Shown here in pieces: positions 9,613 to 52,635 of a DNA stretch of 64,000 bases (positions within the stretch are counted from its first letter, which is position 1; each line of letters begins with the position of its first letter). Origin of the DNA: Hominibacterium faecale (GTDB lineage Bacteria; Bacillota; Clostridia; Peptostreptococcales; Anaerovoracaceae); the NCBI RefSeq assembly GCF_020734085.1, contig NZ_JAJAGH010000008.1, positions 5,743 through 69,742 on the forward strand. Reading direction: 5' to 3'. The notes beneath the pieces were generated by a model that made no database searches, was not told the DNA's origin, and saw only the letters and a program-made list of their open reading frames with translations. The translations under genes and the position numbers were made by a program.

Positions 9613-9641
9613 AGGGCCGGAGCAATAAGGAGGCAGAGATT

Positions 9642-21874: not shown

Positions 21875-21875
21875 A

Positions 21876-22790: not shown

Positions 22791-22794
22791 GCTG

Positions 22795-30100: not shown

Positions 30101-31008
30101 TGCTGTTTCATGAAATCTACGGCTGTTACTACAATACGGTCGCCAGGATCCTCAAAGAAGCGCGGAAGGGAACCGTCGATTGGGATGCGATGAGGCAGAT
30201 CGTTTCGGAAAATGCCTTTTCGGAGAGTTTTCTGACAATCGAGCCGGCACTGAAAAAACAAGAATGGAAGCTGATCGATGAAAAGGGGCTCACGCCGCTG
30301 AAGCACGACCCTTCCCTGCCGGTGAGCCTGCTTCAAAAGCGCTGGTTGAAAGCGATCAGCCTGGATCCGAGGATACAGCTCTTCGACGTGAATTTTGAAG
30401 GGCTGGAGGGCATAGAGCCTTTGTTCACACCCCAGGACTATGTGGTCTTTGATCAATATGACGACGGGGATCCATATGATGACCAAGCGTACCGCGAAAA
30501 CTTCCGGATGATCCTCGATGCCATAAAAAATCAGAAGCAAGTTCACGTGCTCTATGAAAACCGCAAGGGGTCGGCGCGGGAGTTTGTTTGTGTGCCCTAT
30601 CAGATGGAATACTCGGAAAAAGACGACAAGTTCAGAGCCCTGGTGGCGGGTACCAGATATGCGGATATTGTCAATATCGCCAGGATAAAAGAGTGCCGCC
30701 CGGTGGGACAAAGCGATGGGCAGATAAAAGAGCCTGCGGTAAAAAAATCGGATTATTTTGTTTTAGAACTGACCGATGAAAGAAACGCTTTGGAACGGGT
30801 GATGCTCCATTTTGCCCATTTCCAAAAGGAAGCGGAGCAGCTTTCGGATCATCGATATCGGCTGCGAATTGATTACCAGCGGGATGATGAAACGGAACTG
30901 GTGATCCGGGTGCTTTCTTTCGGCCCCATGGTAAAGGTCACCGAACCGGCAGGCTTTTTAGAACGGATCAAAGAAAGACTGATGATGCAAAAAGATTGCG
31001 GACTTTAA
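30100..31008 (+). CDS. WYL-domain protein, subunit 2 (overlaps upstream by TAATG)
   Basis: WYL-like block VHVLYENRKGSAREFVCVPYQMEY. 1-nt stop/start overlap suggests a co-translated heteromeric pair. Confidence 0.5.
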   Translation: MLFHEIYGCYYNTVARILKEARKGTVDWDAMRQIVSENAFSESFLTIEPALKKQEWKLIDEKGLTPLKHDPSLPVSLLQKRWLKAISLDPRIQLFDVNFEGLEGIEPLFTPQDYVVFDQYDDGDPYDDQAYRENFRMILDAIKNQKQVHVLYENRKGSAREFVCVPYQMEYSEKDDKFRALVAGTRYADIVNIARIKECRPVGQSDGQIKEPAVKKSDYFVLELTDERNALERVMLHFAHFQKEAEQLSDHRYRLRIDYQRDDETELVIRVLSFGPMVKVTEPAGFLERIKERLMMQKDCGL

Positions 31009-31250: not shown

Positions 31251-31534
31251 TTTGGTAAGTAAAATTGTGTTTTGTCTGAAAGACGAAAACAGATGACATC
31301 CGTCATCTCAAGTAAGGCAATAGGCCACGTCAAGTCGTCCTTGATCAGATATGCGTCTGGTGAAGGAGCAGGCTGACAATGAGCATTGTACCCTGCCGGA
31401 AAGAGGATACCGTTTTGTGCGCCCCAGCCGGCCAGAGCATCTGCTTCCGCCGCTGCGGCAGCAAACTGAATGTTTCCGCCGTACCATGTTCATGGCAGAT
31501 TGCCAAACGAATTTCAACTGGGAGGTTTATTTAT

Positions 31535-32623
31535 ATGAAGAAAATTATCAATGAAAATCAAAGGGGGCTCCTGTTTAAAAAAGGCCGGTTTATCAGACTG
31601 GTGGAGCCGGGAGGCTGCTATTTGTTCGGCGGCGCGCAAGTGGAAATTGTTGAACTGGATGAGCCTTTGGAGCCGGTGACCTGTTCTTTGGATGTGCTTT
31701 TGAGAAATGAGGCTGTTCAGGAGCAGGTGGAGGTAGTCAATGTGGGAGATGAGGAACTGGTCCTCCACTTTGTCAACGGGCGTTTTGACCAATGCCTGGA
31801 TACGGGAAGATATGCCTTTTGGTCCCTTTATGATCGGCATGAATTCATTTCCGCAGGGATTGACCGCCCGGAAGTGGCGCAGGAGATTCCCGCTCACATC
31901 TTCGACAAGATTCCCGCCAGCTATTACATAAAAACAGAGGTTGCTGAATACGAAAAGGGCGTGCTGTTCTATGATCAGAAATTCGTCGGCGTACTGGATG
32001 CAGGCACCTATTATTTCTGGAGGGGCAAGACAAAGGTGAACGTTAAGCTGGTGGATACCCGTCTGACGAGGATGGAGATCAGCGGCCAGGAGATTCTTTC
32101 CAAAGATAAAGTGACTCTGCGTATCAATTTTGTGTGCAACTATCAGGTTGTGGATTGGGTAAAAGCGATCATCAAGCTGGATAATTACCAAGAACAGCTG
32201 CACGTAGCTGCTCAGCTGATCCTCCGCGAGTATGCGGGAAATTATCGCATCGACGAGATTTTGGAAAACAAGGAAGAACTGGCGGAGAAAGTGTTTCAGA
32301 AGTTGAAAGAAAAGGAAGCGGATCTGTACGTGCAGATCAAAGAAGCGGGTATCAAAGATATTATCCTGCCCGGAGAAATACGGGAAATTATGAACACGGT
32401 CCTTATCGCGGAAAAACGCGCTCAGGCCAACGTGATCACCAGGAGGGAGGAAGTGGCGTCCACCCGTTCCCTTCTGAACACAGCCAAGCTGATGGATGAA
32501 AACAAGACCCTTTACAAACTGAAAGAGCTGGAATATGTGGAGAAAATATGCGAAAATGTAGGAGAGATTTCGGTGGCGGGAGGCGATTTGCTGGGACAGC
32601 TGCGTGAGATCGTCGGCCGTTAG
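31535..32623 (+). CDS. SPFH/band-7 domain protein
   Basis: Start set at MKKIINENQRG (GGAGG RBS at 31521-25). C-terminal SPFH core plus coiled coil. The N-terminal G-LF-KG-F motif occurs twice (internal duplication). Confidence 0.7.
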   Translation: MKKIINENQRGLLFKKGRFIRLVEPGGCYLFGGAQVEIVELDEPLEPVTCSLDVLLRNEAVQEQVEVVNVGDEELVLHFVNGRFDQCLDTGRYAFWSLYDRHEFISAGIDRPEVAQEIPAHIFDKIPASYYIKTEVAEYEKGVLFYDQKFVGVLDAGTYYFWRGKTKVNVKLVDTRLTRMEISGQEILSKDKVTLRINFVCNYQVVDWVKAIIKLDNYQEQLHVAAQLILREYAGNYRIDEILENKEELAEKVFQKLKEKEADLYVQIKEAGIKDIILPGEIREIMNTVLIAEKRAQANVITRREEVASTRSLLNTAKLMDENKTLYKLKELEYVEKICENVGEISVAGGDLLGQLREIVGR

Positions 32624-33015: not shown

Positions 33016-34425
33016 ATGAAAAGCCATAATCTCGATAAAGACACCAGGGCGGAATTGTTTGATGTGCTGCTGGAAAACTCCTTTATAGGAATAACGATAA
33101 CAGATGAAAAGGGCGAAATCGTAGTTGTAAACGAGGCTCAATCAAGGATAACCAATATACCAATCGTGGAATCAATCGGGGCAAATATGGAAAGCTATGT
33201 GGAAAGCAACTATATTTCCCAGTCCGCATCCATGCAGGTAATTCAGGATAAAAAACGAGTGGTGATTAACCAGAAATTATCTGCGGGCAAGTCCCATGTC
33301 GTTGAAGGTATTCCTGTGATGGATGATGCTGATCATATAAAATATACGGTCAATTTTTTATTGGATGAATCGGAACTGGAGGAAGCAAGGCAGGAAATCG
33401 AAACGGTTTCATCTGACAAAGAAAAACTTTTCAACAAGTATCAAGAATTGCTGGAAATCCTGAACGAACAGGAAGACATCATCTATCAGAGCAAGGTTAT
33501 GCGGGATATCGTGTATCTTGCGAGCCGAGTAGCTGATCGGGATGTAGCAGTGCTGATCACAGGGCCGTCCGGTTCGGGAAAGGAATTGATCGCCAATCTG
33601 CTTCATGAAAAGAGCAGGCGAAAAACGCGACCGTTCGTAAAAATAAATTGTTCGGCAATACCGGAGCAGCTGTTGGAATCAGAGCTGTTCGGATACGAGC
33701 CGGGCGCTTTTACCGGAGGAGCGCCAAAGGGTAAGGCAGGGCTGCTCGAGTATGCGGACGGAGGGTCTATACTGCTGGACGAAATCGGCGAAATGCCGAT
33801 GCAGCTGCAGGCCAAGCTCTTGCGGGTGCTGCAGGACCAGCAGGTACGCAGGATAGGCAGCACGAAAGATATTAAGGTTGATGTACGGATTATTGCTTCT
33901 ACAAATGCAGATTTGAAAAAGCTCATTGCAGAAAAAAAGTTCAGGGAAGACTTGTATTACAGGATCAATATCGTAGATATCAAAATGCCCGGACTGGATA
34001 AGCGCAGAGAAGACATACCGCTTTTGATCGCTCATTTTGAAAAACGTTTTAATCAAAAATATGATTTCAATAAAAAATTCAGCATTGATGCCATCAATTA
34101 TCTGATGGGTTTGGACTATTGCGGAAATGTTCGAGAATTGCAAAACATCGTCGAGCGGCTCATTGTCCAAAGTTCGAATGATGTTATTACTTTGGAGGAA
34201 GCCTTTGCTGCCATGGGTATCCTCACCATCGAGGAGGATGGGGAAGGAGGAAGGGAACTTATCAAAGTAGAAGAAGAGATGTCACTGAAAAAGATTATGG
34301 AACAATATGAAAGAAAGATCCTTCTTCATTATAAAAAAGTATATGGCAAAGGCACAGTGATGGCAGAAAAACTAAAGACTGACCAAGCCACAATCTCTAG
34401 GAAGCTAAAAAAATACGGTTTATAG
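33016..34425 (+). CDS. sigma-54-dependent transcriptional activator (PAS, AAA+, HTH)
   Basis: Walker A GPSGSGKE, GAFTGG sigma-54 contact motif, ESELFGYEPGAFTGG, and C-terminal HTH. Confidence 0.85.
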   Translation: MKSHNLDKDTRAELFDVLLENSFIGITITDEKGEIVVVNEAQSRITNIPIVESIGANMESYVESNYISQSASMQVIQDKKRVVINQKLSAGKSHVVEGIPVMDDADHIKYTVNFLLDESELEEARQEIETVSSDKEKLFNKYQELLEILNEQEDIIYQSKVMRDIVYLASRVADRDVAVLITGPSGSGKELIANLLHEKSRRKTRPFVKINCSAIPEQLLESELFGYEPGAFTGGAPKGKAGLLEYADGGSILLDEIGEMPMQLQAKLLRVLQDQQVRRIGSTKDIKVDVRIIASTNADLKKLIAEKKFREDLYYRINIVDIKMPGLDKRREDIPLLIAHFEKRFNQKYDFNKKFSIDAINYLMGLDYCGNVRELQNIVERLIVQSSNDVITLEEAFAAMGILTIEEDGEGGRELIKVEEEMSLKKIMEQYERKILLHYKKVYGKGTVMAEKLKTDQATISRKLKKYGL

Positions 34426-34717: not shown

Positions 34718-36337
34718 ATGTTTCACACAAAAACAATAGCGGATATTGTCATAAAAAATGGCAATGTCGTGACGGTCAACAATGGCAATGAAATACAGGA
34801 GGCCATCGCCATTAAGGAAGAAAAAATCATTTTTGTCGGCAGGACAAACGATGCAGAAGAACTGATCGGTAAGAGGACAAAGGTAATCGACGCTCAGGGA
34901 AAAACAGTCATGCCGGGATTTGTCGATGCTCATCTTCACTTGGGAATGTTTGGTTTGCTCGGCCATGGAGTCATAGATATCAGCTATCCAAAGGTTAAGT
35001 CCATCGAAGATATCAAAAGGCTGATCCGGGAGGCTGCCAAAAAGAGTGCACCGGGACGCTGGATCAAACTGCAGGGATATGATCACAACAAGCTGGAGGA
35101 AAAGAGACATCCCTCCAAAGAGGATTTGGATGAGGCCGCTCCAGAGAACCCAGTCCAGTGTATGAGATGCTGCGCCCATCTGAGCGTTTATAATTCACCG
35201 GCGCTGAAGCTGGCAGGCATTCGAGATGATACAGGCTATGCGCCGGGAGAAGTGGTGATGAATGATAAACATGAACCCCATGGATTGTTAAAGGAAACGG
35301 CTCATTGGAATGCCTGCGAGATCGTAGAATTTTACGATGAAGAGCTGAGGGGCGGCTACAAGAACGCAGATCAAATCCTGACATCTTACGGAATAACATC
35401 AGCCCATGACGCAGGAGGGTATGGCAGCAGCTATTACAGGATCATGCAGGATATGTGTAATAACAGTGAGCTGAATACTAAAATGTACTCAATGCTGTTT
35501 AATTTATTTGGAAAGGAATCCGCCCGTAATTTTTTAAAGCTTTTCGTGGGAACAGGCATACATACAGGGTGTGGAAATGAACGATTCAAATTGGGGCCTG
35601 CGAAAATCATGCTGGACGGCAGCTCCAGCGGACCTTCATCGGCGATGATCGAGCCTTATTGCCATTTGCCTTCAAAGGGGATCCTAGTATGGACCCAAGA
35701 AGAAGCGGACAAAATGGTAGCTGATCTCCACAGAAAAGGCTATCAGGTCACAGCGCATGCAGTAGGGGACCAGGCAGTGACGATCATTGTAAATGCAATC
35801 GAAAAGGCTATGAACGAATATCCAAGGGAGGATTGCAGACACAGAATCGAACACTGTGGCATTGTAAACTCCCAATTGCTCGATCAAATAGCGGAGCTGA
35901 ACATAATTCCAATCGCAAACCCCGCTTTTATAGCGATAAACGGTGCCGATTACAATCGCTTTTACGGTATGCGGACAGAATACATGTTTCCTCTTAAAAG
36001 CTATTTGGAAAAAGGGATCGTGGCTGCTCTGGGGTCAGACGCTCCGGTTTCTTATCCAAACCCCATGTACAGTTTTTTCGGTGCCCTCAACAGAAAAGAT
36101 CTGAAAACAGGAGAGCCGGTAGGGGCGGGCCAGAAGGTGGAACTGATGGAAGTCATACGAATGTTTACCTACAACGGGGCGTATGCCTCCTTTGATGAGG
36201 ATATGAAAGGAAGTCTGGAAGAGGGGAAGCTGGCAGATGTGATTATTCTCAGTGAAAATATTTTTGATTGCCCGAAGGAAGAGATCATGAGAATCACAGT
36301 GGAGACCGTCATATCAGGCGGCGAAATCGCAGGTTAA
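34718..36337 (+). CDS. amidohydrolase-family metal-dependent hydrolase (Amidohydro_3-like)
   Basis: VMPGFVDAHLHLG metal-binding motif. 539 aa. Confidence 0.7.
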   Translation: MFHTKTIADIVIKNGNVVTVNNGNEIQEAIAIKEEKIIFVGRTNDAEELIGKRTKVIDAQGKTVMPGFVDAHLHLGMFGLLGHGVIDISYPKVKSIEDIKRLIREAAKKSAPGRWIKLQGYDHNKLEEKRHPSKEDLDEAAPENPVQCMRCCAHLSVYNSPALKLAGIRDDTGYAPGEVVMNDKHEPHGLLKETAHWNACEIVEFYDEELRGGYKNADQILTSYGITSAHDAGGYGSSYYRIMQDMCNNSELNTKMYSMLFNLFGKESARNFLKLFVGTGIHTGCGNERFKLGPAKIMLDGSSSGPSSAMIEPYCHLPSKGILVWTQEEADKMVADLHRKGYQVTAHAVGDQAVTIIVNAIEKAMNEYPREDCRHRIEHCGIVNSQLLDQIAELNIIPIANPAFIAINGADYNRFYGMRTEYMFPLKSYLEKGIVAALGSDAPVSYPNPMYSFFGALNRKDLKTGEPVGAGQKVELMEVIRMFTYNGAYASFDEDMKGSLEEGKLADVIILSENIFDCPKEEIMRITVETVISGGEIAG

Positions 36338-36354: not shown

Positions 36355-37491
36355 ATGGATATAAATTTAGTTAAGAAAAGCAGAAGGCGCGCCTGGCTGG
36401 TTGTAACTGCGGGATTTTTTACTTATTTCTTTATTTATGGTTCGGCATTCAACTGTTTTGGTCTGTTTCTTACACCAATGACTGAAACGCTAGGGGTATC
36501 GAGGACAATCATATCCAGTCTTTTTACCATAGAGCTGCTGGTAGCTATACCGGGCGCTTTGATCTTTGGCAGAATCGCCGACAAAAGGGATCTGAAATGG
36601 CCAATGGCAATATGCTGTGCGCTGGTGGGCATAGGATATATCATGTATGCTACTGTAACTTCGGTGGCGCTGCTTTATATAGCAGCCGGACTGATCGGTA
36701 TTGGAATTGCAGGAACCATACAAATACCGGCGGCGATTTTCATTGATGGCTGGTTCATCAAAAGAAAAGGATTTGCTATGGGCGTCACCATGGTTGGAAG
36801 CGGTGTGGGTGGAACGATACTATCGCAGGTCCTCACACGCGTCATTCAGTCATCTGGATGGGAAGCCGCCTATTTTGGCCTGGGCGCAGCAATCATTGTC
36901 ATTACGGTTCCGCTCACTTTGGCCTTCGTTACAAAAACGCCGCATACTAAAAATATGCTCCGATATGGCGAAGAAGATGAGGCGTATATTGAGAAACTGA
37001 AAGCATCTGAATATGCGGCTTCAGAAAAAGAAGGCGATATAAGAGAGATCATGCGTAAACCAGAATTCTGGGTGCTGTTCATAGGTGTATTCTGTTTTAT
37101 GCTGCCGATGGGAGCCATCAAAGGCCATGTAGTAGCTTATTTAGGCGACCTGGGATATTCACCTCAGCTTGCGGCAAATATCCTAACCATTATGGTGTTT
37201 ACCGTGATACCGGGAAAGCCGTGTACAGGCATATTTTACGATAAGCTGGATTCCAGGATCGCCACTGCCATATGCGGAGTATGCATGGCAGGCGGACTGT
37301 TCTTCTCTTTGGGGGCAGGAGCCGGGATTATATTCGCGATCGCCTTTGCTGCAATTTATGGATTCGGATCAGCACTGGCATTGCTTTTGTCGGCGATCAT
37401 CATCGCCATAGGATATCTGGCATGTATCATCGCATTGACAATGAGCAAAAGAAGGAAAAGGCAGAGCAGGAAACATAATTTCTGTAATTAA
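36355..37491 (+). CDS. MFS transporter
   Basis: 12 TM. GAGGAGG RBS. Confidence 0.8.
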   Translation: MDINLVKKSRRRAWLVVTAGFFTYFFIYGSAFNCFGLFLTPMTETLGVSRTIISSLFTIELLVAIPGALIFGRIADKRDLKWPMAICCALVGIGYIMYATVTSVALLYIAAGLIGIGIAGTIQIPAAIFIDGWFIKRKGFAMGVTMVGSGVGGTILSQVLTRVIQSSGWEAAYFGLGAAIIVITVPLTLAFVTKTPHTKNMLRYGEEDEAYIEKLKASEYAASEKEGDIREIMRKPEFWVLFIGVFCFMLPMGAIKGHVVAYLGDLGYSPQLAANILTIMVFTVIPGKPCTGIFYDKLDSRIATAICGVCMAGGLFFSLGAGAGIIFAIAFAAIYGFGSALALLLSAIIIAIGYLACIIALTMSKRRKRQSRKHNFCN

Positions 37492-37583: not shown

Positions 37584-37623
37584 TAAGTCAAAAACGACTA
37601 TGTGAATAGTCGTTTTTGACTAT
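37584..37623. promoter_or_regulatory. perfect 16-bp inverted repeat AGTCAAAAACGACTAT-gtga-ATAGTCGTTTTTGACT (candidate EBP UAS)
   Basis: Lies about 170 bp upstream of the sigma-54 promoter at 37783. The same motif family recurs at 37670-37687 and at 54193-54315. Confidence 0.45.
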
Positions 37624-37782
37624 AAAAATAACGTTGTTTGGGATGAATTCCTTCCTATTTTAAGAGCGGATAGTCAATTTTAGCTAGCAATAAAAATGCC
37701 TGGCTAAAATGAAATTGAAGAAAAACCTTTTGTTTCAAGGAAATAGAAGGTTTTTTGTGCGTTTCTTGAAACTAAATGTATT

Positions 37783-37798
37783 TGGCATACAATTTGCA
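37783..37798 (+). promoter_or_regulatory. sigma-54 promoter TGGCATacaatTTGCA
   Basis: Canonical -24 GG / -12 GC spacing, about 127 nt upstream of the GAPDH start. Confidence 0.55.
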
Positions 37799-37924
37799 AT
37801 ATATTAAGGTCAGTATATTATCAACAAGGACTCGGAGGCGCCGTTAATGCAGCTTGCAGATCATGCCATCTGCGGAGCTTTAAAAAAGGTGATTCCGGAA
37901 ATGAGTGAACGAGGAGGAGAAACA

Positions 37925-38947
37925 ATGACGAATGTATTAGTGGTGGGTTATGGAACAATTGGACAGAGGCTTGCCGACGGGGTTAGTCTGCAGGACGATA
38001 TGAATCTGATTGGAGTTGTGGACGCGGCAATGAGTCTGTCGATCAGGGCCCTGAAAGAAAAAGGCATGCCATATGATCTTTATGCAGTAAACGAAACGTG
38101 CCGGGCCGAGCTTGCAGCAAACGGGATTCCAGTCCGCGGACTTTTGGAGGAAGCACTTGAGAAAACAGACATTGTATTGGATGCGACATCCGCAGGTGTT
38201 GGTGCGAAAAATAAAGAGCAATATAAAAAATATGGGGTTAAAGCGGTCTTCCAGGGCGGCGAGAAAAATGATGTGGCAGATGTGTTTTTTCACGGATATG
38301 CCAACTATGAAAAAGGCCTCCATGCGGATTTCCTAAAGCTGACATCCTGCAACACAACCGGATTGATCCGGGCAGTAGACTGCCTCGATAAAAAATGCGG
38401 GATTGAGAAGGTCGCGATTACCATTGTACGGAGAGTTGCGGACCCGGGAGATTACCACAGAGGATTGACCAATGCGCTGCAGGTTGACAAAGCGCCCAAT
38501 CATCAGGCACTGGATCTGATGACGATTTTGCCGGAAATTAAAGCGACCGGAATCCTGGTGCACGCACCGGTAACCCATGGACACTTTATTACCGTAGTGG
38601 CAACACCGAAGAGAGATATATCAGTGAAGGAGGCAATCGATACATTCAAAGAGCACAACCGTATTCGCATGGTCAGACTGGATGAAGGATTTCAGGGCAA
38701 TGCTTCAATCTTCAAATACGCAAGAGATCTTGGAAGGCCAAGAGGCGATCTGTATGAAATCTGCATCTGGGAGGACACCATCGTAAAATCTGGTAAGGAT
38801 ATTATGTTTGGAATACATATTCCACAGGAATCGGTAACCATTCCTGAGACGATTGATGCGATTCGTGCGGCAATGGCCATGGATACAGACGGAAAAACAG
38901 CGGTGGAAAAGACCAACAAGAATCTTGGCCTGGGAGGATGGAAATGA
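37925..38947 (+). CDS. type II (archaeal-type) glyceraldehyde-3-phosphate dehydrogenase family protein
   Basis: Start at MTNVLVVGYGTIGQR (GAGGAGGAG RBS). SCNTTGL catalytic-Cys motif and overall collinearity with archaeal GAPDH (for example Methanothermus) rather than bacterial GapA. Confidence 0.75.
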   Translation: MTNVLVVGYGTIGQRLADGVSLQDDMNLIGVVDAAMSLSIRALKEKGMPYDLYAVNETCRAELAANGIPVRGLLEEALEKTDIVLDATSAGVGAKNKEQYKKYGVKAVFQGGEKNDVADVFFHGYANYEKGLHADFLKLTSCNTTGLIRAVDCLDKKCGIEKVAITIVRRVADPGDYHRGLTNALQVDKAPNHQALDLMTILPEIKATGILVHAPVTHGHFITVVATPKRDISVKEAIDTFKEHNRIRMVRLDEGFQGNASIFKYARDLGRPRGDLYEICIWEDTIVKSGKDIMFGIHIPQESVTIPETIDAIRAAMAMDTDGKTAVEKTNKNLGLGGWK

Positions 38948-40188
38948 TTAAATGGAAAACAGTGGACGATTATGATTATCGGAACAAAGTGACCTTGCTG
39001 CGAGTGGACATCAACTCTCCAATCCACCCAGGTACGAAGAAAATTGTAAACGAAAACAGGATTCATAAAAGCGCGCCAACCATCCAGAAGCTGTTAGATA
39101 AAGGTACGAAGCTGGTGATCATCGCGCACCAGGGGGATACGCTGGATTACGAAAACCTGATCCCTATGGAAGAACATGCTCAAAAGTTGAATCAATATAT
39201 AAACGGGAGTATCCGCTATATTGATGATCCCTGCGGTCCGGCAGCACAGGAAGAAATCCGAAAGCTGAAGGCTGGAGAAGGACTTTTACTGGGAAACTTG
39301 CGCTATCTTACTGAAGAGACTTCAACCTTTGAGAATGTGGTAAAGCTAAAGCCAGAATTGATGGAACAGACCTACCTGGTACGATCCCTGCTTCCTTTAT
39401 GTGATTATTATGTCAACGACGCCTTTTCCGCAGCCCATAGAAATGCACCTTCCATGGCTGCATTCCAGAGGCTTCTTCCTACGGCAGCAGGCGAGCTGAT
39501 GTGCCGGGAAGTTGAAGCGCTGGATCAGATTATTGAATCTCCGGACCACCCATGTCTGTTTGTGTTAGGAGGTGCAAAGATTTCCGATGCCTTTGGCATG
39601 ATGAAGCAAGTTCTGGAAACAGGCAAAGCGGATAAAATTCTTACTTGCGGAGTTACAGGTGAAATTATGCTGATGGCGAAAGGCTATTCATTGGGAGAAA
39701 AAAAGGAATTATTTATCCGCGAGCGGGGACTGGACCGTTTCGTACAGGAGGCAAGGCAATATCTTGATAAATACCCACAAAAGATCGATTATCCAGTTGA
39801 TGTGGTGTATGAAAGAAGCGGGGAACGCTGTACGCTGGACATTGACGAATTGCCCAAGTCAGAACTGTTTATGGACATTGGAGAAAAAACGATTGAGCAC
39901 TATCGACGAGAAATCATACAAGCAAAAACCATTTTTGTAAACGGACCTGCAGGCGCTTATGAAAATCCGCTTTTTGAAAGAGGAACGAAAGAAGTCTGGG
40001 AAGCGATTGCAGCTGCAAAAGGCTATTCTGTCATCGGAGGCGGCGACACCGTCAGTGCGGCGCAGCGCTATATTAATCTGGATGATATTGGTTATGTCTG
40101 CACTGCAGGAGGTGCGATGGTGAGGTATGTATCCGGGACAAAACTGCCTTTAATCGAGGCCATGGACGGTGCACAATCAAAAGGTTAA
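38944..40188 (+). CDS. phosphoglycerate kinase family protein (archaeal-type)
   Basis: RVDINSPI, VNDAFSAAHR and GGAKISDAFGM / GGGDT PGK motifs. The ATGA start overlaps the GAPDH stop. Confidence 0.75.
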   Translation: MIKWKTVDDYDYRNKVTLLRVDINSPIHPGTKKIVNENRIHKSAPTIQKLLDKGTKLVIIAHQGDTLDYENLIPMEEHAQKLNQYINGSIRYIDDPCGPAAQEEIRKLKAGEGLLLGNLRYLTEETSTFENVVKLKPELMEQTYLVRSLLPLCDYYVNDAFSAAHRNAPSMAAFQRLLPTAAGELMCREVEALDQIIESPDHPCLFVLGGAKISDAFGMMKQVLETGKADKILTCGVTGEIMLMAKGYSLGEKKELFIRERGLDRFVQEARQYLDKYPQKIDYPVDVVYERSGERCTLDIDELPKSELFMDIGEKTIEHYRREIIQAKTIFVNGPAGAYENPLFERGTKEVWEAIAAAKGYSVIGGGDTVSAAQRYINLDDIGYVCTAGGAMVRYVSGTKLPLIEAMDGAQSKG

Positions 40189-40219
40189 AAGAACAGAGAT
40201 TCTGGGAAAGGAAAACAAA

Positions 40220-41287
40220 ATGAATACATATAAAATTGCAGTAATCGGCGGAGACGGCGTAGGACCGGAAGTTTGCAGGGAAGGAAAAAAGGTTCTGCAT
40301 AAAATTGCAGAGCTGGATAAGGGCATCGGATTTGAATTTGAGGATTTCCCCTGGGGATGTGAATATTATCTGGAGCATGGTGAAATGATGCCGCAGGATG
40401 CCCTGGAGACTCTAAAAAAATTTGATGCCGTTTACTTGGGAGCAGTTGGATTTCCGGGGGTACCGGACCATATTTCTTTGTGGGATATTCTGCTGAAAAT
40501 CAGAAAAGGGTTTGATCAATATATCAACCTGCGGCCGATCAAGCTGCTGAAAGGAGCCCCATGTCCGCTTGCAGGTGTAAAGCGCGAGCAGATTGACATG
40601 CTGGTTGTGCGGGAAAACAGCGAAGGCGAATATGCAGGAAGCGGAAGCTGGATGTACAAGGGAAAAATCAACGAAGTGGTGATACAGGACAGTGTTTTTT
40701 CCAGACTGGGATGTGAAAGGGTGATTCGCTATGCGTATGAATTAGCAAAAAAAGAGAAGAAAACATTGACAAGCATTAGCAAAGCCAATGCACTTAATTA
40801 CTCCATGGTATTTTGGGATCAGATTTTTGAAGAGGTCGGACGGGAATACCCGGATGTGGAAACCTACTCCTATCTGGTGGATGCGGCAAGCATGTTTTTT
40901 GTAAAAGAACCTGAGCGGTTTCAGATCGTAGTAACGTCCAATTTGTTCGGAGATATTCTCACCGATTTAGGGGCAGCGATTGCGGGAGGTATGGGACTTG
41001 CCGCAGGGGCAAATATCAATCCGGAAAGGCTCTATCCGTCCATGTTTGAGCCGATCCACGGATCTGCGCCCGACATTGCGGGAACCGGGCAGGCAAATCC
41101 CCTTGCAGCGGTCTGGTCAGTCAGCCAGATGATGGACTTTTTCGGTTATGAGGAATGGGGAAAACGCATATTGGATGCCATTGAACAGCTTCTTACAGAA
41201 AAAAAGAGCCTGCCACGCGACTTAGGAGGGAGTTCGACAACAGAAGCTGTCGGAAATGAAATTGTGCGGCTGCTGGAACGGGCGTAA
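40220..41287 (+). CDS. tartrate dehydrogenase / D-malate / 3-isopropylmalate dehydrogenase-family decarboxylating dehydrogenase
   Basis: Start at MNTYKIAVIGGDGVGPEV. NLFGDILTDLGA signature. 355 aa. Confidence 0.7.
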   Translation: MNTYKIAVIGGDGVGPEVCREGKKVLHKIAELDKGIGFEFEDFPWGCEYYLEHGEMMPQDALETLKKFDAVYLGAVGFPGVPDHISLWDILLKIRKGFDQYINLRPIKLLKGAPCPLAGVKREQIDMLVVRENSEGEYAGSGSWMYKGKINEVVIQDSVFSRLGCERVIRYAYELAKKEKKTLTSISKANALNYSMVFWDQIFEEVGREYPDVETYSYLVDAASMFFVKEPERFQIVVTSNLFGDILTDLGAAIAGGMGLAAGANINPERLYPSMFEPIHGSAPDIAGTGQANPLAAVWSVSQMMDFFGYEEWGKRILDAIEQLLTEKKSLPRDLGGSSTTEAVGNEIVRLLERA

Positions 41288-41342: not shown

Positions 41343-42425
41343 CTAAGAATAAAAGACCCGCTGAAAAAGCTGATGTCTTCCGCTGATATCCAATTTCTGA
41401 TAGATATTGGATACATGCTTTTTTACGGTAGGCATACTGATTTGACATTGCTCCATGATTTCCGTATTGCTGAGGCCGTTTACCAGATACTGGAGCACTT
41501 CGTATTCCCGGAGGGTCAGGTGATTGGTCTCTTTGATGGAAAGAAGGATATTGTCGATGATGGTGGAATAGTCGTAAACACAGCAGGAGAAGGTCTGGTC
41601 AGAATCGTTGTAGCTGACGTTGACGTAATAGGACTTATCTTCCAGGTTGATTTTACTGTGGGTTTTCAAAGTTTCAGACACTTTGGAAGCGCCTCGGGCC
41701 GAGATTTCCTGCTTTAGCGTCTCGCACATGGCAGTAAACATATTCCGGATCGTATCCAGAGAGAGCTGAGAATGCAGGCCGGTGGTAATATTGGAATGCA
41801 TGATGTTCAGATCCCGGTCGTAAACCATGTACACCAGAATATTATCGTGAGAAAACATAGTATATTTGCTTTTATCCAGATTATGCTTTGCCTCACAAAC
41901 ATCCTGAACGATTCTGGACAAGTGCAGTTTGAACATTTTGATCAATTCCAGATCCTGCGCGGTAAAATCCTCAGATTGCTTTGACCGATGCAGCCCAATG
42001 CCGCAGACATATCCACTGGGGGAATTTTCCACAAAGAGATTGCCCTCGATGGAATAATACATATTGCAGGGCTTGAGGCATTCTTTAAAATAGCGGGTTT
42101 TCTCCCGCTCAGAGCGGGTAAAAATCTCCGAGCTTTTGAAGATGATGGGCTGTTTCAAAGAAACGATAGGCAGAGCATCGTCCATGTCACAGACCTTGAA
42201 ATAATAGTTCAGATCCTTTCCCCATCCGGCAAAGATAAAATTTTCAAATCGAATGCTGTTCTGCCCTTTTTTAAAAATATAAATATCGCCTTTTTCAAAG
42301 AAGCAAAGTTTCTTTAGTTCTTCAAGAAAGTGCTGCAAAGCGTCGATTTTATTGTATGCAACATATAAATCCGAAATCATTTTGTTAAACGTATAAAATT
42401 CATTTTCATTAAAGGTAAATGCCAT
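41343..42425 (-). CDS. LuxR-family transcriptional regulator with large N-terminal sensor domain
   Basis: C-terminal GerE/LuxR HTH (LTLREYEVLQYLVNGLSNTEI...). Start at MAFTF (AGGAAA RBS). Divergent from the GRE operon. Confidence 0.7.
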   Translation of the reverse strand: MAFTFNENEFYTFNKMISDLYVAYNKIDALQHFLEELKKLCFFEKGDIYIFKKGQNSIRFENFIFAGWGKDLNYYFKVCDMDDALPIVSLKQPIIFKSSEIFTRSEREKTRYFKECLKPCNMYYSIEGNLFVENSPSGYVCGIGLHRSKQSEDFTAQDLELIKMFKLHLSRIVQDVCEAKHNLDKSKYTMFSHDNILVYMVYDRDLNIMHSNITTGLHSQLSLDTIRNMFTAMCETLKQEISARGASKVSETLKTHSKINLEDKSYYVNVSYNDSDQTFSCCVYDYSTIIDNILLSIKETNHLTLREYEVLQYLVNGLSNTEIMEQCQISMPTVKKHVSNIYQKLDISGRHQLFQRVFYS

Positions 42426-42643
42426 AATATTTCCTCTGCATAACATTTAGCAAAAACAGACTGTATATTTATTATATTTGATTGTATTTGAAAAGTAAAT
42501 GTTCAATTCGGCAAGGTATACCAACGGCTACCATGGAAAAAATCCTACTGCAGAACAATTGTCAGAAAACTTGATCGGGTATATAGTTAATCTATACTTG
42601 GAAAAGACAAGACAACGGATAAAATGACGAAGGAAGGGAGTGA

Positions 42644-42937: not shown

Positions 42938-45343
42938 ATGAACACAGAAAACAGAACTTTTTCTTTAGAAGGGGAAAACCATTTCCCCAGAATTGAAAAG
43001 CTGATCGAAGACTACAGAAAAGCCCGGCCCAGCGTAGATATCGAGCGGGCCAGAATCTATACCGAGTCTTTCAAAGAAACAGAAGGGGAAGACATCATTA
43101 CCAGACGGGCCCAGGCCTTCAAGGATTACTGCGAGAAAAGAGAGATACGGATTGCAGACCACCAGCTGATTGCAGGCGATGTCGCCAGAATCCCCAGGGC
43201 TGGAGTTGTAGACCCGGTGTTTCACTGCGGCTGGCTCAGCGAAGAACTGGACACCATTTCCACAAGAAAACAGGATCCCTATTTCATTTCGGAAGAGGAT
43301 AAAAAAGAACTGCGGGAAACCATTTTTCCATATTGGAAAGGCAAAATTGTCAGCGAACTCTGGCTCCGCCAAATCCCGCCTTATGTAAGAGAAATGGCCG
43401 TCAAGACCGGCATCATCGACGTGGAGATCAAAACTCAGAGCGCGGCCGGAGAGACAGCTCCTTACTGGGAAAAGGCCATGAATACCGGCCTGGGACAGAT
43501 GGAAAAGGAGCTTGCGGAGGCCATCGACGCTCTGGATCCGATTGATCCGGAAAGCTATGAAAAAATTACGTTTTATAAAGCCTGTAAGATGACCTTAGAA
43601 GGCTTAAAGCATTATATCCTGCGGTTTGCCGGTCTGGCTGAAGAGCAGGCCGATCAGGCGGCAGGCAAAAGAAAGGAGGAGCTGGAACGCATTGCTGCCA
43701 ACTGCCGCTATCTTTCAGATAACAAACCAAAAACCTTCTGGCAGGGGCTGCAGCTTACTTACTTCATCCTGGCAGGCTGCATGATGGAAGGCAACGGCCC
43801 TTCCTATTCGCCGGGAAGAATGGACCAGTATCTGTATCCTCTGTACGCAAAGGATATGGAAGAAGGAAGACTGACGGATGCACAGACGCTGGAGCTGATC
43901 GAGGCATTCTATGTAAAGACAGCGGAATCCACTTGGTTTCTCAGTGCAAATGCGGCCATGTACTTTGCGGGATATCAGCCGTTTCACAGCATTATCGTAG
44001 GCGGGATTGACAAGAGGGGAAAGGATGCGACCAACCAGCTGTCCTACCTGTTTATCACAGCTAAAATGGATGTACAGCTTCACAGCCCCTCTCTGTGCGC
44101 CCGGGTACACCAGCAGTCGCCAGAGGAGCTGATTGCCCACATCGCCAAACTGGCCAGACTGGGAACCGGATTTCCGGCTATCTATAACGATGAAGTCGCC
44201 ATTAAGATGATGCTGCTGTCCGGAGGAACGATGGAAGAGGCCAGAGACTATCAGATGGTTGGGTGTGTTGAGCCGTTTATGGGCGGCAAGATGGCCAAAT
44301 GGTCAGACGGCGGCCACTACAACTATGCGGCGGCCATGGAATTCGTTCTCCATAACGGAAGAAGCATTATCAATGAGAACAAGCTGCTGGGTTTGGAAAC
44401 AGGTGATCCACAGGACATGACTTACGATGAAATCAAAGATGCGGTGAAACAGCAGCTCAAATATATGATCGAGTCCATCAGCATCTGCGCCAATGTCAAT
44501 GAGAAGGTCTGCGCAGAGCTGACACCGTACCCGTTTATTTCCACATTCCTGGAAGGGACGTTACATACAGGAAAAGATCTGACCCGGGGTGGTGTGAAAT
44601 ATACCATCGGACCGGCGCTGATCGGCACAGGCATTGCAGATCTGGTTAACTCGCTTTCCGCAATTAAGAAGCACGTCTTTGATGATAAGACGATTACTAT
44701 GGGTGAGTTGATCCAGGCACTGAAAGCAAATTTTGATGGTTATGAAAAAATCCGTCTCATGCTGCAGAATACAACGCCGATGTACGGAAATGACATTGAA
44801 GAGGTGGATGCGCTGGCAGGAGAAATGACTGATTACGCCTACAGTGTGATTTCCCAGTGCAAATCCTGGAGAGGTCCGCACTTTATTTCCGGTCTGTACC
44901 CGGTATCCTCACATGTTCCCCACGGACTGGTGGTAGGCGCTCTGCCTTATGGGCGGCTTTCAGGAAAGGCCCTTGCGGACGGATGCTTCCCAAATGGCGG
45001 AACCGACCACGAAGGACCAACTTCCGTATTAAAATCGGTTTCCAGAATCAATCACGAAGTCCATACCTCGGGCACCCTGCTGAATATGAAACTGGACCCT
45101 CAAAGTGTTTCGGGAGATTTGGGAATCAAGCGGATTTCCGACATCATCCGTACATTTGTAGACTTGAATATCTATCACATTCAGTTCAATGTAGTGAGCC
45201 GTGAGCTGCTGCGAGCAGCGCAGGACAAACCGGAAGAACACAAATCACTGATCGTGCGAGTAGCCGGATATAGCGCCTACTTCACGGAACTTTGTGAAGA
45301 AATGCAGGACGACATCATCAACAGAACCATACATCAGGCTTAA
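42938..45343 (+). CDS. glycyl radical enzyme, glycerol/diol-dehydratase-like clade (substrate unknown)
   Basis: 801 aa. VGCVEP Cys-loop. C-terminal glycine radical motif RVAGYSAYF. Block-by-block similarity to C. butyricum glycerol dehydratase as recalled, but the NGHS active-site stretch reads NGPS here. Confidence 0.85.
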   Translation: MNTENRTFSLEGENHFPRIEKLIEDYRKARPSVDIERARIYTESFKETEGEDIITRRAQAFKDYCEKREIRIADHQLIAGDVARIPRAGVVDPVFHCGWLSEELDTISTRKQDPYFISEEDKKELRETIFPYWKGKIVSELWLRQIPPYVREMAVKTGIIDVEIKTQSAAGETAPYWEKAMNTGLGQMEKELAEAIDALDPIDPESYEKITFYKACKMTLEGLKHYILRFAGLAEEQADQAAGKRKEELERIAANCRYLSDNKPKTFWQGLQLTYFILAGCMMEGNGPSYSPGRMDQYLYPLYAKDMEEGRLTDAQTLELIEAFYVKTAESTWFLSANAAMYFAGYQPFHSIIVGGIDKRGKDATNQLSYLFITAKMDVQLHSPSLCARVHQQSPEELIAHIAKLARLGTGFPAIYNDEVAIKMMLLSGGTMEEARDYQMVGCVEPFMGGKMAKWSDGGHYNYAAAMEFVLHNGRSIINENKLLGLETGDPQDMTYDEIKDAVKQQLKYMIESISICANVNEKVCAELTPYPFISTFLEGTLHTGKDLTRGGVKYTIGPALIGTGIADLVNSLSAIKKHVFDDKTITMGELIQALKANFDGYEKIRLMLQNTTPMYGNDIEEVDALAGEMTDYAYSVISQCKSWRGPHFISGLYPVSSHVPHGLVVGALPYGRLSGKALADGCFPNGGTDHEGPTSVLKSVSRINHEVHTSGTLLNMKLDPQSVSGDLGIKRISDIIRTFVDLNIYHIQFNVVSRELLRAAQDKPEEHKSLIVRVAGYSAYFTELCEEMQDDIINRTIHQA

Positions 45344-45360
45344 ATACAGGAGATTTGTCA

Positions 45361-46269
45361 ATGAAGGAAAAACGGACAGGGATTATCTTTAATACGCAGA
45401 AATTTTCCATACATGACGGCGGCGGGATACGGACCCTGATTTTTATGAAGGGCTGCCCGCTGCGGTGTATCTGGTGCAGCAATCCGGAATCCCAGAGGCC
45501 GGAGCCGGAGATCACAGATGTAAAAACCAATTGTATTGGCTGCGGAGACTGCGTTTGTGTATGTCCGAAGGAGGCAGTCAATCCGTTGACCTTTCAGATT
45601 GACCGGGGCAAGTGCGATGCCTGCGGCCTGTGCGCGAAAAGCTGCTACGCACAGGCTAAAAAGCTGACCGGTCAGGTAGTGACTGTGGAGGAGCTGGTGA
45701 ATATCGCTGTAAAGGATCAGGTCATATACCGGAATTCAGGCGGCGGTGTGACGGTCGGAGGCGGCGAGCCTCTGACCCAGCCGGACTTCGTTTACGAGTT
45801 TCTCCGTGCCTGCAGCATGCGCAACATCCATACGGCCATTGAAACCTGCGGCTTTGGAGACTGGTCTGAGGTGGAAAAGGTTTTTCACCAGGCCGATCAG
45901 ATTTTATTTGATTTGAAATGCATGGATGAGGAAAAGCATCGGGCGTATACTGGCGTAAGTAATAAAAGCATCCTGCTCAACGCAGAAAAGGCGGCGGCCT
46001 CAGGCAAAGAGATCCGCTTTCGGGTCCCGGTGATCCCAGGGGTAAACGACGGGGAGAATATACGGCAAACCGGAGCGTTTGTCCGTGGGCTGCAGAGGCA
46101 AAACAGTCAGGTGAAGGTTGAACTGCTGCCTTATCATAATTTTGGAAAAGACAAGTATAAATGGCTCGGCAGAAAGTATGATCTGGAGCCTTTAGAGCGT
46201 ATGGAAAAAGAGGAGTTGGGCCGATATTACAAGGTGTTGGAAGAATTGGACTGTAATGTCGTATATTAA
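45361..46269 (+). CDS. glycyl radical enzyme activating protein (radical SAM, with two extra ferredoxin-like clusters)
   Basis: CPLRCIWCSNPES radical-SAM motif. CIGCGDCVCVCP and CDACGLCAKSC motifs. AGGAG RBS. ATG at 45361. Confidence 0.85.
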   Translation: MKEKRTGIIFNTQKFSIHDGGGIRTLIFMKGCPLRCIWCSNPESQRPEPEITDVKTNCIGCGDCVCVCPKEAVNPLTFQIDRGKCDACGLCAKSCYAQAKKLTGQVVTVEELVNIAVKDQVIYRNSGGGVTVGGGEPLTQPDFVYEFLRACSMRNIHTAIETCGFGDWSEVEKVFHQADQILFDLKCMDEEKHRAYTGVSNKSILLNAEKAAASGKEIRFRVPVIPGVNDGENIRQTGAFVRGLQRQNSQVKVELLPYHNFGKDKYKWLGRKYDLEPLERMEKEELGRYYKVLEELDCNVVY

Positions 46270-46401: not shown

Positions 46402-47478
46402 CTATTTCACATAGGTCTCCATTGGGCGGATCATATAGTTGAGAGGGCCCATCTTATCGGTCGTAACATAGCCTGGCTCGGAGTTCATGACATCCGGTAT
46501 CCGGTTAACAACGGAAGCACAGGTAATGGCTACGGTGTCCGGTTTCTTTAATACGAAGTCCTGGGTCGGTTCTCCGTAAAGGGTCCATTTGATCAAATCC
46601 TCTTCGCCGGGAGCATATACTTTTCCCACACACTCGGTTTCCAGCGTGATGCCTTCTTCTGTAGTGGTAATCACCGTAGCGGAGAGCCCGACTGCATGGC
46701 CGGCGGGGATTTCTGTCTGCAGAACATCGGACCATAACGGCTGATCGCAGGTCTGAGGGATGAATTTCTGTTCCTGTGTCTTTACAGTCAATCCCAGCAG
46801 GGAACAGATCCAGCCGTTGGCATTCCACATGTAGCATGGAAGGAAATCTTCTGTTTCCAGTACTTCCTGTCTCTTTTCCTCAGAAATATTATTAACAGCG
46901 GCAATGGTCTTTTCAAATTCATCCAGCGACAGGTTGACGCCATGAACCTTGGCCAGGGCAACTCCGTAATCTTCCGAATTATATACAACAGAGCCTTTAA
47001 TTTTGGTGACTTTATTGGATGCCCCGGCGATGGTGGAAATAATGTATCCCCAGCCCATGTCCTGTGCTCCGGTCCCGCAGATGGTACAGTTGTTCTTTTT
47101 TGCAAGCTCATCGATTTCCTTTGTCATCTTATAGCGGGAGTTCCATGGATAAAAGGCCTCTTCACATGTGGAGATGGCATTAATGCCCAATTCCGCGCAG
47201 AGAAGGAAGATGTCCTGACAGTCGGGGAGAAGGGCCATGGTTTCAACAATGCATACATCCGGCTTAGTCTGGGTGAGGATCTGGCGGGCATCCTTGGCGT
47301 AGCTGACTTTAACGCCCTTGTTTTCTGTGCCCATGATCTCGCCAATATCTTTGCCAAAGGCGCGGTCGGATTTACCAAAAGCGCAGACCACCTCGCCACC
47401 ATGGTCATAGACATACTTCATAGTTGGACCAGCCATTTTTCCACTTCCATACTGAGCAACTTTTACTTTACGATTCAT
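46402..47478 (-). CDS. DapB-fold NAD(P)-dependent oxidoreductase, probable amine dehydrogenase (2,4-diaminopentanoate dehydrogenase-like family)
   Basis: N-terminal Rossmann motif KVAQYGSGKMAG. Architecture recalls native amine dehydrogenases. AGGAGG RBS. Last gene of the dehydratase operon. Confidence 0.5.
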   Translation of the reverse strand: MNRKVKVAQYGSGKMAGPTMKYVYDHGGEVVCAFGKSDRAFGKDIGEIMGTENKGVKVSYAKDARQILTQTKPDVCIVETMALLPDCQDIFLLCAELGINAISTCEEAFYPWNSRYKMTKEIDELAKKNNCTICGTGAQDMGWGYIISTIAGASNKVTKIKGSVVYNSEDYGVALAKVHGVNLSLDEFEKTIAAVNNISEEKRQEVLETEDFLPCYMWNANGWICSLLGLTVKTQEQKFIPQTCDQPLWSDVLQTEIPAGHAVGLSATVITTTEEGITLETECVGKVYAPGEEDLIKWTLYGEPTQDFVLKKPDTVAITCASVVNRIPDVMNSEPGYVTTDKMGPLNYMIRPMETYVK

Positions 47479-47552: not shown

Positions 47553-47897
47553 TTATAACGGATATAAGGGCAGCCCTTTCACGAGGCGGGCTGCATTTTG
47601 ACCAAAGATTCGCCCTTCCTTTTTCGTCAGAGCAGGCGGCCTCTTTTCCAGGATACAGGTCCCGGGCCCAGCCTTCTGATGCATGAGAAACACCTTCTCT
47701 TTTGATATTCCGATTGCAATGCCCACCTTGGAAGCCTGAGCTGAGCCAAAGGTGTGCTCGTTCAGAGCAGAGGCGGGCGCAAGGGTGCGGGTGCTGAACA
47801 AGCCTTCCTCCTCGATTCCGTACTCGATCTGCGTCACATAGCAGGATAGGGAGTCCTCGGTATAAAGCAGGTGGATTGCCGGGTATCGGTTATTCAT
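47553..47897 (-). CDS. diol/glycerol dehydratase reactivase small (beta) subunit
   Basis: Start at MNNRYPAIHLLY. EEEG and NAARLVKGLP blocks match DdrB/DhaG. Overlaps the alpha subunit stop by 8 nt. Confidence 0.7.
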   Translation of the reverse strand: MNNRYPAIHLLYTEDSLSCYVTQIEYGIEEEGLFSTRTLAPASALNEHTFGSAQASKVGIAIGISKEKVFLMHQKAGPGTCILEKRPPALTKKEGRIFGQNAARLVKGLPLYPL

Positions 47898-52467: not shown

Positions 52468-52620
52468 TTCCTACTCCTTTTCTACTTTGGTTTCTTTAAG
52501 AATCCCTGTGAGGACCATAAAAGTTTCCTCGTAACCTTATTTTAACATAAAGATTGCTCAATATTCTGAAAATTCTCCTGAGAAACGATGGGGACGAAAA
52601 TCTTTATGCTATTTAATAAA

Positions 52621-52635
52621 GCAAATTTTATGCCA
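52621..52635 (-). promoter_or_regulatory. sigma-54 promoter (minus strand: TGGCATaaaatTTGC)
   Basis: Plus strand reads GCAAattttaTGCCA. Lies about 155 nt upstream of the dehydratase start. Confidence 0.55.

Follow-up and report, generated by a model that had tools for sequence, protein, structure and literature searches.

Archaeal-type GAPDH and PGK homologues in a sigma-54-type operon of Hominibacterium faecale: a proposed route from D-malate semialdehyde to D-malate and ATP

In a 64,000-nucleotide stretch of the Hominibacterium faecale genome (contig NZ_JAJAGH010000008.1 of assembly GCF_020734085.1; the whole stretch is called the window below), three closely packed genes make up a single unit downstream of a sigma-54-type promoter. 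They encode a homologue of archaeal-type (type II) glyceraldehyde-3-phosphate dehydrogenase (GAPDH), a homologue of archaeal-type phosphoglycerate kinase (PGK), and a tartrate/D-malate dehydrogenase. The first two make up a pair that is a widespread, tightly conserved and uncharacterised bacterial subfamily of archaeal-type GAPDH/PGK, and its genomic neighbours implicate D-malate semialdehyde and D-malate in particular. The reading we prefer, with a probability of roughly 0.55, is that the operon takes D-malate semialdehyde through D-malyl phosphate to D-malate and ATP, and D-malate on to pyruvate and CO2. As to whether a natural energy-conserving malyl-phosphate step exists, in which descendants of archaeal GAPDH and PGK were re-specialised to convert D-malate semialdehyde to D-malate with the gain of one ATP, we consider the odds to be even. 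The promoter and the three genes are as follows.

37783-37798, plus strand: predicted sigma-54 (-24/-12) promoter of the three-gene operon, TGGCATacaatTTGCA, an exact match to TGGCA-N6-TTGCW
37925-38947, plus strand: type II (archaeal-type) GAPDH homologue of a bacterial subclade, 340 amino acids, with the ribosome-binding site GGAGGAG
38944-40188, plus strand: archaeal-type PGK homologue, matching PF00162 with 356 bits over profile positions 1-378 of 379
40220-41287, plus strand: tartrate/D-malate dehydrogenase, beta-decarboxylating, Iso_dh family, 355 amino acids, beginning 31 nt after the PGK-like gene

The GAPDH-like protein matched the NCBIfam model NF003251 for 'type II GAPDH' with 396.3 bits (cutoff 185) and TIGR01546 with 300.9 bits (cutoff 232.9), in both cases over residues 1-337. 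A longer open reading frame (ORF) starting at 37847 adds 26 residues that have no counterpart in homologues, and the start at 37925 is preferred. Matches in the PDB were limited to four chains, all of them archaeal, with Pyrococcus horikoshii 2czc scoring best and Methanothermus fervidus 1cf2 included. The catalytic Cys142 sits in TSCNTTGL, and this Cys, the catalytic His220 and the pair Arg169/Arg170 are invariant across 74 clade members and the four archaeal GAPDH structures. The window protein lacks the canonical archaeal signature (PSHHGPDV, TTLMHxH, vHQES, and Lys33 for NADP), however, and carries PNHQALDL, VTHGHFI, IPQES and Asp33, replacements that are invariant across the bacterial clade. 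Fourteen checked positions constitute a signature invariant in the 74 clade members, including Asp33, Lys138, Gln194, His218, Gly219, Ile222, His244, Asn259 and Pro300, where canonical archaeal GAPDHs have Lys33, Arg138, His194, Leu-Met (218-219), His222, Thr244, Thr259 and His300. Among the fixed changes are Gln for the second His of PSHHGPDV and His-Gly for the Leu-Met that precedes the catalytic His. The change of Lys33 to Asp suggests the use of NAD rather than NADP, and hence a catabolic role. We propose that the protein is an NAD-dependent phosphorylating D-malate-semialdehyde dehydrogenase, a substrate that we infer from gene context.

For the PGK-like protein, which matches PF00162 over its whole length and keeps the hinge and nucleotide-site residues of the family, the best PDB match (292 bits) was the only archaeal PGK structure, Pyrococcus horikoshii 2cun; PGKs of bacteria and eukaryotes scored about 190 bits or lower. 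Family profiles and archaeal best structural matches thus agree with the initial annotation, which had read the two proteins as a type II GAPDH with SCNTTGL and an archaeal-type PGK, not as bacterial GapA and Pgk. The protein retains Asp23, Asn25, Arg38, His62, Arg122, Arg170, Lys215, Asn336, Glu343, Asp374 and Gly395. The basic patch that binds the 3-phosphate (Arg38, His62, Arg65, Arg122, Arg170) is incomplete, in that the Arg65 equivalent is missing, and this is the sole loss among the known contacts to 3-phosphoglycerate and nucleotide. At this position 75 of 75 clade PGK-like proteins have Asp or Ser, while 118 of 120 archaeal PGKs have Lys or Arg, a comparison that is taxonomically narrow, as the archaeal set consists of Thermococcales only. 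Human PGK, the enzyme from which the residue roles are assigned, also has Arg there. Loss of one phosphate ligand would fit a smaller, singly charged carboxylate, without proving it. Accepting D-malyl phosphate as the putative substrate, we propose that the protein is an ATP-forming D-malyl-phosphate:ADP phosphotransferase. The PGK-like gene starts with the ATG at 38944 inside the GAPDH-like gene, whose stop codon TGA occupies 38945-38947, and GGGAGGA lies 7 nt before the ATG. This ATGA overlap, GGAGGATGGAAATGATT, is as described initially, and it predicts that the PGK-like gene is translationally coupled to its partner.

The third gene encodes a decarboxylating dehydrogenase, as had been noted from the sequence, and its identity can be narrowed further. 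It exceeded the cutoff of the equivalog TIGR02089 for tartrate dehydrogenase (487.8 bits, cutoff 470.4), and fell just under that of NF006048 (489.3 bits, cutoff 501). Its closest structure was the tartrate dehydrogenase/decarboxylase of Pseudomonas putida (3flk, 372 bits), while the best isopropylmalate dehydrogenase scored 264 bits. UniRef names the protein 'D-malate dehydrogenase (decarboxylating)', and the labels that NCBI already places on these genes include 'type II GAPDH' and 'tartrate dehydrogenase'. The reaction we propose for it is D-malate + NAD+ to pyruvate + CO2. Exact matches to the sequence bear the names Ihubacter massiliensis and Hominibacterium faecale (Eubacteriales Family XIII).

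Upstream of the operon, the following features bear on its control.

33016-34425, plus strand: sigma-54 enhancer-binding protein (EBP) of PAS-AAA+-HTH architecture, PrdR-like, Sigma54_activat 232 bits
34641-34656, plus strand: second predicted sigma-54-type promoter, TGGCATcatagTTGCG, a slightly relaxed copy ahead of the amidohydrolase-MFS operon
34718-36337, plus strand: Amidohydro_3 (YtcJ-like) hydrolase, first gene of the neighbouring operon
36355-37491, plus strand: oxalate/formate-type transporter of the major facilitator superfamily (MFS), second gene of the neighbouring operon
37586-37621, no strand assigned: terminator-like 16-bp hairpin between the MFS operon and the GAPDH-like operon
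37721-37757, no strand assigned: inverted repeat AAAAACCTT-N17-AAGGTTTTT, a low-confidence candidate for an activator-binding site

The promoter at 37783 has the -24 GG and -12 GC elements at canonical spacing 5′ of the first gene, and the initial annotation had rightly placed all three genes behind such a site. The strict pattern TGGCA-N6-TTGCW was found twice in 64 kb, where 0.42 occurrences were expected, and both copies lie directly 5′ of operons adjoining sigma-54 EBP genes. Transcription from a sigma-54 promoter would require an enhancer-binding activator. The nearest EBP gene is that at 33016-34425, 3.4 kb upstream of the three-gene operon, and judging only by this proximity its product is probably the activator of the promoter at 37783. 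The half-site AAAAACCTTTT is also present 52 nt upstream of the promoter at 34641; a sequence common to both upstream regions is weak evidence for a shared activator, as the region is AT-rich and chance may account for it, and the amidohydrolase-MFS operon possibly belongs to the same regulon. The leader between promoter and GAPDH-like gene is about 125 nt long, and no riboswitch was found in it. Sigma-54-type sites also precede the GAPDH-like operons of five related loci (L006, L007, L008, L009 and L047), three of which (L007, L008 and L047) have an EBP gene within the stretch covered. Thus, sigma-54 control recurs among amino-acid-fermenting Clostridia.

A search of 5.8 billion proteins returned 6167 relatives of the GAPDH-like protein at E <= 1e-20, and the top 120 were all 70-100% identical to it, with Anaerovorax, Bacilliculturomica, Sinanaerobacter, Clostridium ganghwense, Tindallia and the spirochaete Breznakiella among the named sources. 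Scanning one genome per species gave 80 loci with GAPDH-like identities of 66-83%, under source labels that include Clostridia, Spirochaetes, Chloroflexi, Atribacterota, Gammaproteobacteria, Rhodospirillaceae and a metagenome bin carrying a Bifidobacteriaceae label. In a library clustered at 50% identity, full-length GAPDH-like representatives appeared at 66% and 61%, and the next at 42% or less. A distance tree placed the bacterial clade apart from the canonical archaeal GAPDHs, its nearest neighbours being a handful of paralogues without the catalytic Cys. Since the window protein is at most 42% identical to archaeal-type GAPDHs and belongs to a separate bacterial clade, any transfer from archaea must be old, and the transfer now visible is between bacteria. 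Horizontal transfer, which had been suggested earlier, therefore stands as an ancient event from archaea; no sign of recent transfer was found by composition, the GC content of the operon being the same as that of its flanks (0.46). The impression that such genes are unusual for a bacterium gives way to a large conserved bacterial clade in at least six phyla, already named by NCBI PGAP.

The paralogues nearest to the clade (P0150, P0153 and P0166) are full-length proteins in which SCNTTG is replaced by PQPSLVG, SNYNING or PIGMVLG, and from these replacements they are probably non-catalytic or differently catalytic. Another large type II GAPDH-like subfamily (P0199, P0204, P0207, P0214, P0215 and others) has Arg-Cys in place of Arg-Arg at the positions of window residues 169/170, while position 33 is hydrophobic; it may represent a further specificity.

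For a census of gene context, ORFs were called in 82 loci and clustered, and recurrent clusters were annotated. Because the ORF caller at times chose antisense ORFs, the counts are lower bounds; loci flanked by 4 kb or more on either side were considered well flanked (n=48). The PGK-like gene adjoins the GAPDH-like gene in at least 75 of the 82 loci. The commonest other neighbour was a LarA homologue (38 loci), whose representative from L004 had the malate racemase Mar2 as its best PDB match (246 bits, versus 182 bits for lactate racemase). The consensus of this LarA cluster carries the Q-K and GHK motifs, which the description of Mar2 tied to malate (PMC7583248). A split transketolase was present in 31-33 loci, IolD and IolE in 22 each, IolG in 17 and IolB in 14, and a short malic enzyme (a neighbour protein of 390 amino acids) in 21. 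Tartrate/D-malate dehydrogenase was found in three loci, namely the window, L010 and L073, and the latter two have neither LarA nor malic enzyme. Taken over the well-flanked loci, a LarA homologue, malic enzyme or tartrate/D-malate dehydrogenase lies within 10 kb in 31 of 48, and in 17 of the 18 that have iol genes.

The cluster of the C. ganghwense type (L010, L026 and L073) combines an ABC transporter, the GAPDH-like and PGK-like genes, the N and C halves of transketolase, IolB, IolD, IolE and IolG, and in L010 and L073 the tartrate/D-malate dehydrogenase is inserted between IolD and IolE. In the L005/L010 stretch, the called genes yielded no aldehyde dehydrogenase, kinase or aldolase domain; with no other aldehyde dehydrogenase recorded, the GAPDH-like protein is the only candidate there to turn the transketolase product into malate. 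Other loci have different neighbours, a class III aminotransferase in L007 and L043, and an isomerase of the KduI/IolB type with a D-2-hydroxyacid dehydrogenase in L009 and L047. The former could reach the same aldehyde from 4-amino-3-hydroxybutyrate, and the latter from 3,4-dihydroxybutyrate. Regulators near the pair are of inducible types across loci (LacI, DeoR, AraC and EBP).

Linkage to tpiA, eno or gpm, as in a housekeeping glycolytic operon, was not observed, and no TpiA or Eno match was found in the window or the related loci (1.37 Mb searched). In L075, from a Saccharofermentanales metagenome-assembled genome, a canonical type I GapA gene (8581-9639), 53% identical to E. coli GapA, stands immediately upstream of the type II pair and is followed by the GAPDH-like gene, the PGK-like gene, LarA and transketolase. 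The same assembly yields a second locus, L078, and three assemblies gave two loci each.

From this context a pathway can be drawn up. The GAPDH-like enzyme would bind D-malate semialdehyde (3-hydroxy-4-oxobutanoate), an analogue of D-glyceraldehyde 3-phosphate (GAP) with -CH2-COO- in place of -CH2-OPO3. By way of a thiohemiacetal and thioester at Cys142, the aldehyde would be oxidised with NAD+ and phosphorolysed to D-malyl phosphate, and the PGK-like enzyme would pass the acyl phosphate to ADP, releasing D-malate and one ATP. From the obligate PGK-like partner we infer that the acyl phosphate is used to make ATP. Oxidative decarboxylation of D-malate by tartrate/D-malate dehydrogenase, yielding pyruvate and CO2, would complete the sequence. 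Elsewhere, in many anaerobes, the pair would act downstream of IolG/E/D/B and the split transketolase, where the former would yield 2-deoxy-5-keto-D-gluconate and the latter would cleave it into a C2 unit (C6-C5) and D-malate semialdehyde. Working from the structures, we find 2-deoxy-5-keto-D-gluconate to be of the D-threo configuration needed by transketolase, and its C1-C4 fragment, OHC-CH(OH)-CH2-COO-, to be a D-aldehyde configured like D-GAP that oxidises to D-(R)-malate. A product of this configuration explains the need for either a racemase, with an L-specific malic enzyme, or a D-specific decarboxylating dehydrogenase. At iol-type loci, D-malate would pass to malate racemase and malic enzyme, which would take the place of the decarboxylating dehydrogenase. 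The initial annotation had already suggested that the role is non-glycolytic and lies in aldehyde oxidation with substrate-level phosphorylation, and this remains the best reading of the gene-context data.

The parent system is the archaeal type II GAPDH/PGK (1cf2, 2czc and 2cun). Window and archaeal proteins share fold and family, full-length collinear alignment, the SCNTTGL Cys, the His and the Arg-Arg pair, as well as the hinge and nucleotide site of PGK, and the chemistry from thioester through acyl phosphate to ATP is presumed to be the same. The window clade differs in that it is exclusively bacterial, has an altered signature and a PGK without the basic residue equivalent to Arg65, and resides in catabolic operons with malate enzymes and not in a gluconeogenic setting; the proposed substrate would be a carboxylate, not a phosphate ester. 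The intermediates proposed here are established in aerobic Acinetobacter baumannii, where carnitine-derived malic semialdehyde is converted to D-malate and then to pyruvate by a beta-decarboxylating D-malate dehydrogenase, also of the Iso_dh family (PMC11353897). There, however, a non-phosphorylating aldehyde dehydrogenase is used without ATP gain and the aldehyde comes from the oxygenase CntAB, whereas the window pair would conserve ATP under anoxic conditions. Canonical myo-inositol catabolism (IolG, IolE, IolD, IolB, IolC, IolJ and IolA) shares IolG/E/D/B with the related loci up to 2-deoxy-5-keto-D-gluconate, and from this point the split transketolase, the pair and the malate enzymes replace the branch of kinase, aldolase and malonate-semialdehyde dehydrogenase. 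Aspartate kinase with aspartate-semialdehyde dehydrogenase, and the engineered malyl-phosphate pathway, likewise interconvert the acyl phosphate and the semialdehyde of a C4-dicarboxylate through a Cys-dependent phosphorylating dehydrogenase, but they belong to unrelated protein families, run in the biosynthetic (reductive) direction and use the other carboxyl (C4 of L-aspartate or L-malate). As for Mar2, of the LarA superfamily, and malic enzyme, they are the partners met most often beside the pair elsewhere; both are absent from the window, which has D-malate dehydrogenase instead.

Other genes of the window were considered as sources of the aldehyde. The amidohydrolase, whose PDB relatives are uncharacterised only, and the MFS transporter, which likewise has no characterised relatives, are unsupported as feeders, given that none of the other GAPDH-like loci has homologues of them and that in Dysosmobacter (L087) the EBP-transporter-amidohydrolase unit is independent, standing alone without GAPDH/PGK. 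Downstream of the operon, a divergent LuxR-type regulator (41343-42446) is followed by a glycyl-radical enzyme (42938-45343) and its activase (45355-46269). The glycyl-radical enzyme, of the 1,2-eliminase type, scores well under the equivalog cutoffs for CutC, HpsG/HpfG and HypD. A third predicted sigma-54 promoter at 52620-52635 on the minus strand precedes a B12 diol-dehydratase-like gene with fused large and medium subunits (50242-52467), and the operon continues with a two-subunit reactivase (47890-49782 and 47553-48074) and a DAP_DH_C-like dehydrogenase (46402-47478). A small subunit was not observed. A divergent second EBP (52759-54195) and an amino-acid permease (54552-55925) lie nearby, and the B12 operon may belong to an amino-alcohol or diol pathway. 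Neither the glycyl-radical enzyme nor the B12 dehydratase was retained as a direct source, as their products are 2-deoxy aldehydes and their regulators are separate. Elsewhere in the window, an OpuAC-type betaine/choline/carnitine ABC transporter was observed at 21230-23520, and two adjacent WYL-domain proteins (28859-31008) are followed by an SPFH/Band-7 protein (31379-32623).

Several observations weigh against assigning the operon to D-malate semialdehyde. The substrate assignment derives entirely from gene context, and the window itself offers no iol genes, nor any aminotransferase or isomerase like those of the other loci, within its 64 kb. The transketolase-dependent myo-inositol route is marked by iol genes and a linked split transketolase beside the pair, an arrangement that the window does not have; its only candidate is the following.

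57480-59302: split transketolase, N and C halves, after an NAD(P)H-hydrate dehydratase gene and 16 kb from the operon

This transketolase is 40-49% identical to those linked to the pair, which are at least 49% identical among themselves, and it appears to fall just outside their group. No feeder of the kinds proposed for other loci was thus found in the window to supply the aldehyde. The free-standing Dysosmobacter unit counts on the same side, as does the finding that nine of the 48 well-flanked loci, mostly gammaproteobacterial, have no malate enzyme, transketolase or iol gene. In L011, L016, L018, L022, L025, L032 and L048 (Gammaproteobacteria and other Pseudomonadota), the neighbours are two conserved membrane proteins without Pfam match, a cupin, TRAP/TAXI transporters, an amidohydrolase_2 protein and a CocE-type hydrolase, which looks like a distinct marine context. 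Most of the PGK residues that bind 3-phosphoglycerate are kept together with Arg169/Arg170 of the GAPDH-like protein, so activity on phosphorylated substrates is possible. Finally, in three loci from Oscillospiraceae and Clostridiaceae bins (L034, L038 and L040), the pair and transketolase adjoin genes for DeoC aldolase, phosphomutase and a class IV aminotransferase, and both LarA and malic enzyme are missing, a setting that would also fit genuine GAP as the substrate.

These observations can be set against three other explanations. The same chemistry might act on another anionic 2-hydroxy- or oxo-aldehyde, such as 2-hydroxy-4-oxobutanoate, tartronate semialdehyde, D-glyceraldehyde or sulfolactaldehyde, which we regard as unlikely. 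The clade-specific active-site changes indicate altered specificity without naming a ligand, the contexts are heterogeneous (the gammaproteobacterial loci with TRAP/TAXI, cupin, amidohydrolase_2 and CocE being an example), and the glycyl-radical enzyme and B12 operon of the window both make aldehydes, although ones without an alpha-hydroxyl group. However, these two operons have regulators of their own and are not conserved beside the pair, whereas the dominant partners are the malate racemase-like LarA, malic enzyme and D-malate dehydrogenase, and with these the product has to be malate. Such malate-specific partners rule out sulfolactaldehyde and tartronate semialdehyde as substrates and likewise exclude glycerate as product. 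2-Hydroxy-4-oxobutanoate would also give malate, but the transketolase and iol context predicts an alpha-hydroxy aldehyde, which is also the closest mimic of GAP.

Quite unlikely, in our estimate, is that the pair is a genuine second or only GAPDH/PGK set acting on GAP and 1,3-bisphosphoglycerate, for example a gluconeogenic or inducible glycolytic set acquired from archaea, to which the dehydrogenase is merely adjacent. Both proteins do pass curated family thresholds for type II GAPDH and PGK, with the catalytic Cys and His, Arg169/170 and four of the five checked residues of the PGK phosphate patch (Arg38, His62, Arg122 and Arg170) kept, and the association with transketolase, or with DeoC and phosphomutase in three loci, could reflect central sugar-phosphate metabolism. 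A housekeeping set is nevertheless difficult to reconcile with the missing tpiA/eno linkage, with the canonical GapA beside the pair in L075 and the paired loci in three assemblies, and with pairs embedded in inducible catabolic clusters with malate-specific enzymes. The clade signature is invariant exactly where true archaeal GAPDHs are invariant, the PGK equivalent of Arg65 is lost, and sigma-54/EBP control is atypical of housekeeping glycolysis. A third explanation would run the module in reverse, the PGK-like enzyme activating D-malate or a tartrate-derived acid and the GAPDH-like enzyme reducing it to the semialdehyde, and would mirror in nature the malyl-phosphate route engineered for 2,4-dihydroxybutyrate. 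The reactions of both parent enzymes are reversible, and archaeal type II GAPDH and PGK work gluconeogenically. A synthetic malyl-phosphate pathway also exists (PMC12104201). This direction appears very improbable, since the change of Lys33 to Asp suggests NAD and not NADPH, the partners are catabolic (a transporter, iol genes, malic enzyme, and a dehydrogenase that consumes D-malate by decarboxylation), and ATP and NADH would be spent with no visible sink for the aldehyde.

No description of the pair or of a transketolase-dependent inositol route was found in the literature covered, which extended to papers outside subscription-only access, and neither a 2025 review nor a 2026 Dysosmobacter paper on gut inositol metabolism mentions such a route. 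If the assignment to D-malate semialdehyde is correct, it would add two new enzyme activities, and anaerobes would have a further site of substrate-level phosphorylation. Myo-inositol catabolism would gain an anaerobic branch that depends on transketolase and uses no kinase, relevant to the use of dietary inositol in the gut, and other routes would lead to the same aldehyde in many anaerobes of gut and sediment. Where Mar2 obtains its D-malate physiologically was left open by the 2020 paper that described it (PMC7583248); the pathway would supply such a source for nickel-pincer malate racemases and explain the purpose of Mar2. Natural enzymes would become available for malyl-phosphate chemistry, which is now engineered from mutated enzymes of the aspartate pathway. 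Thousands of bacterial genes automatically annotated as type II GAPDH or phosphoglycerate kinase would be mis-assigned, and models of Ihubacter/Hominibacterium and related gut Clostridia would have to recount these genes when glycolysis is inferred.

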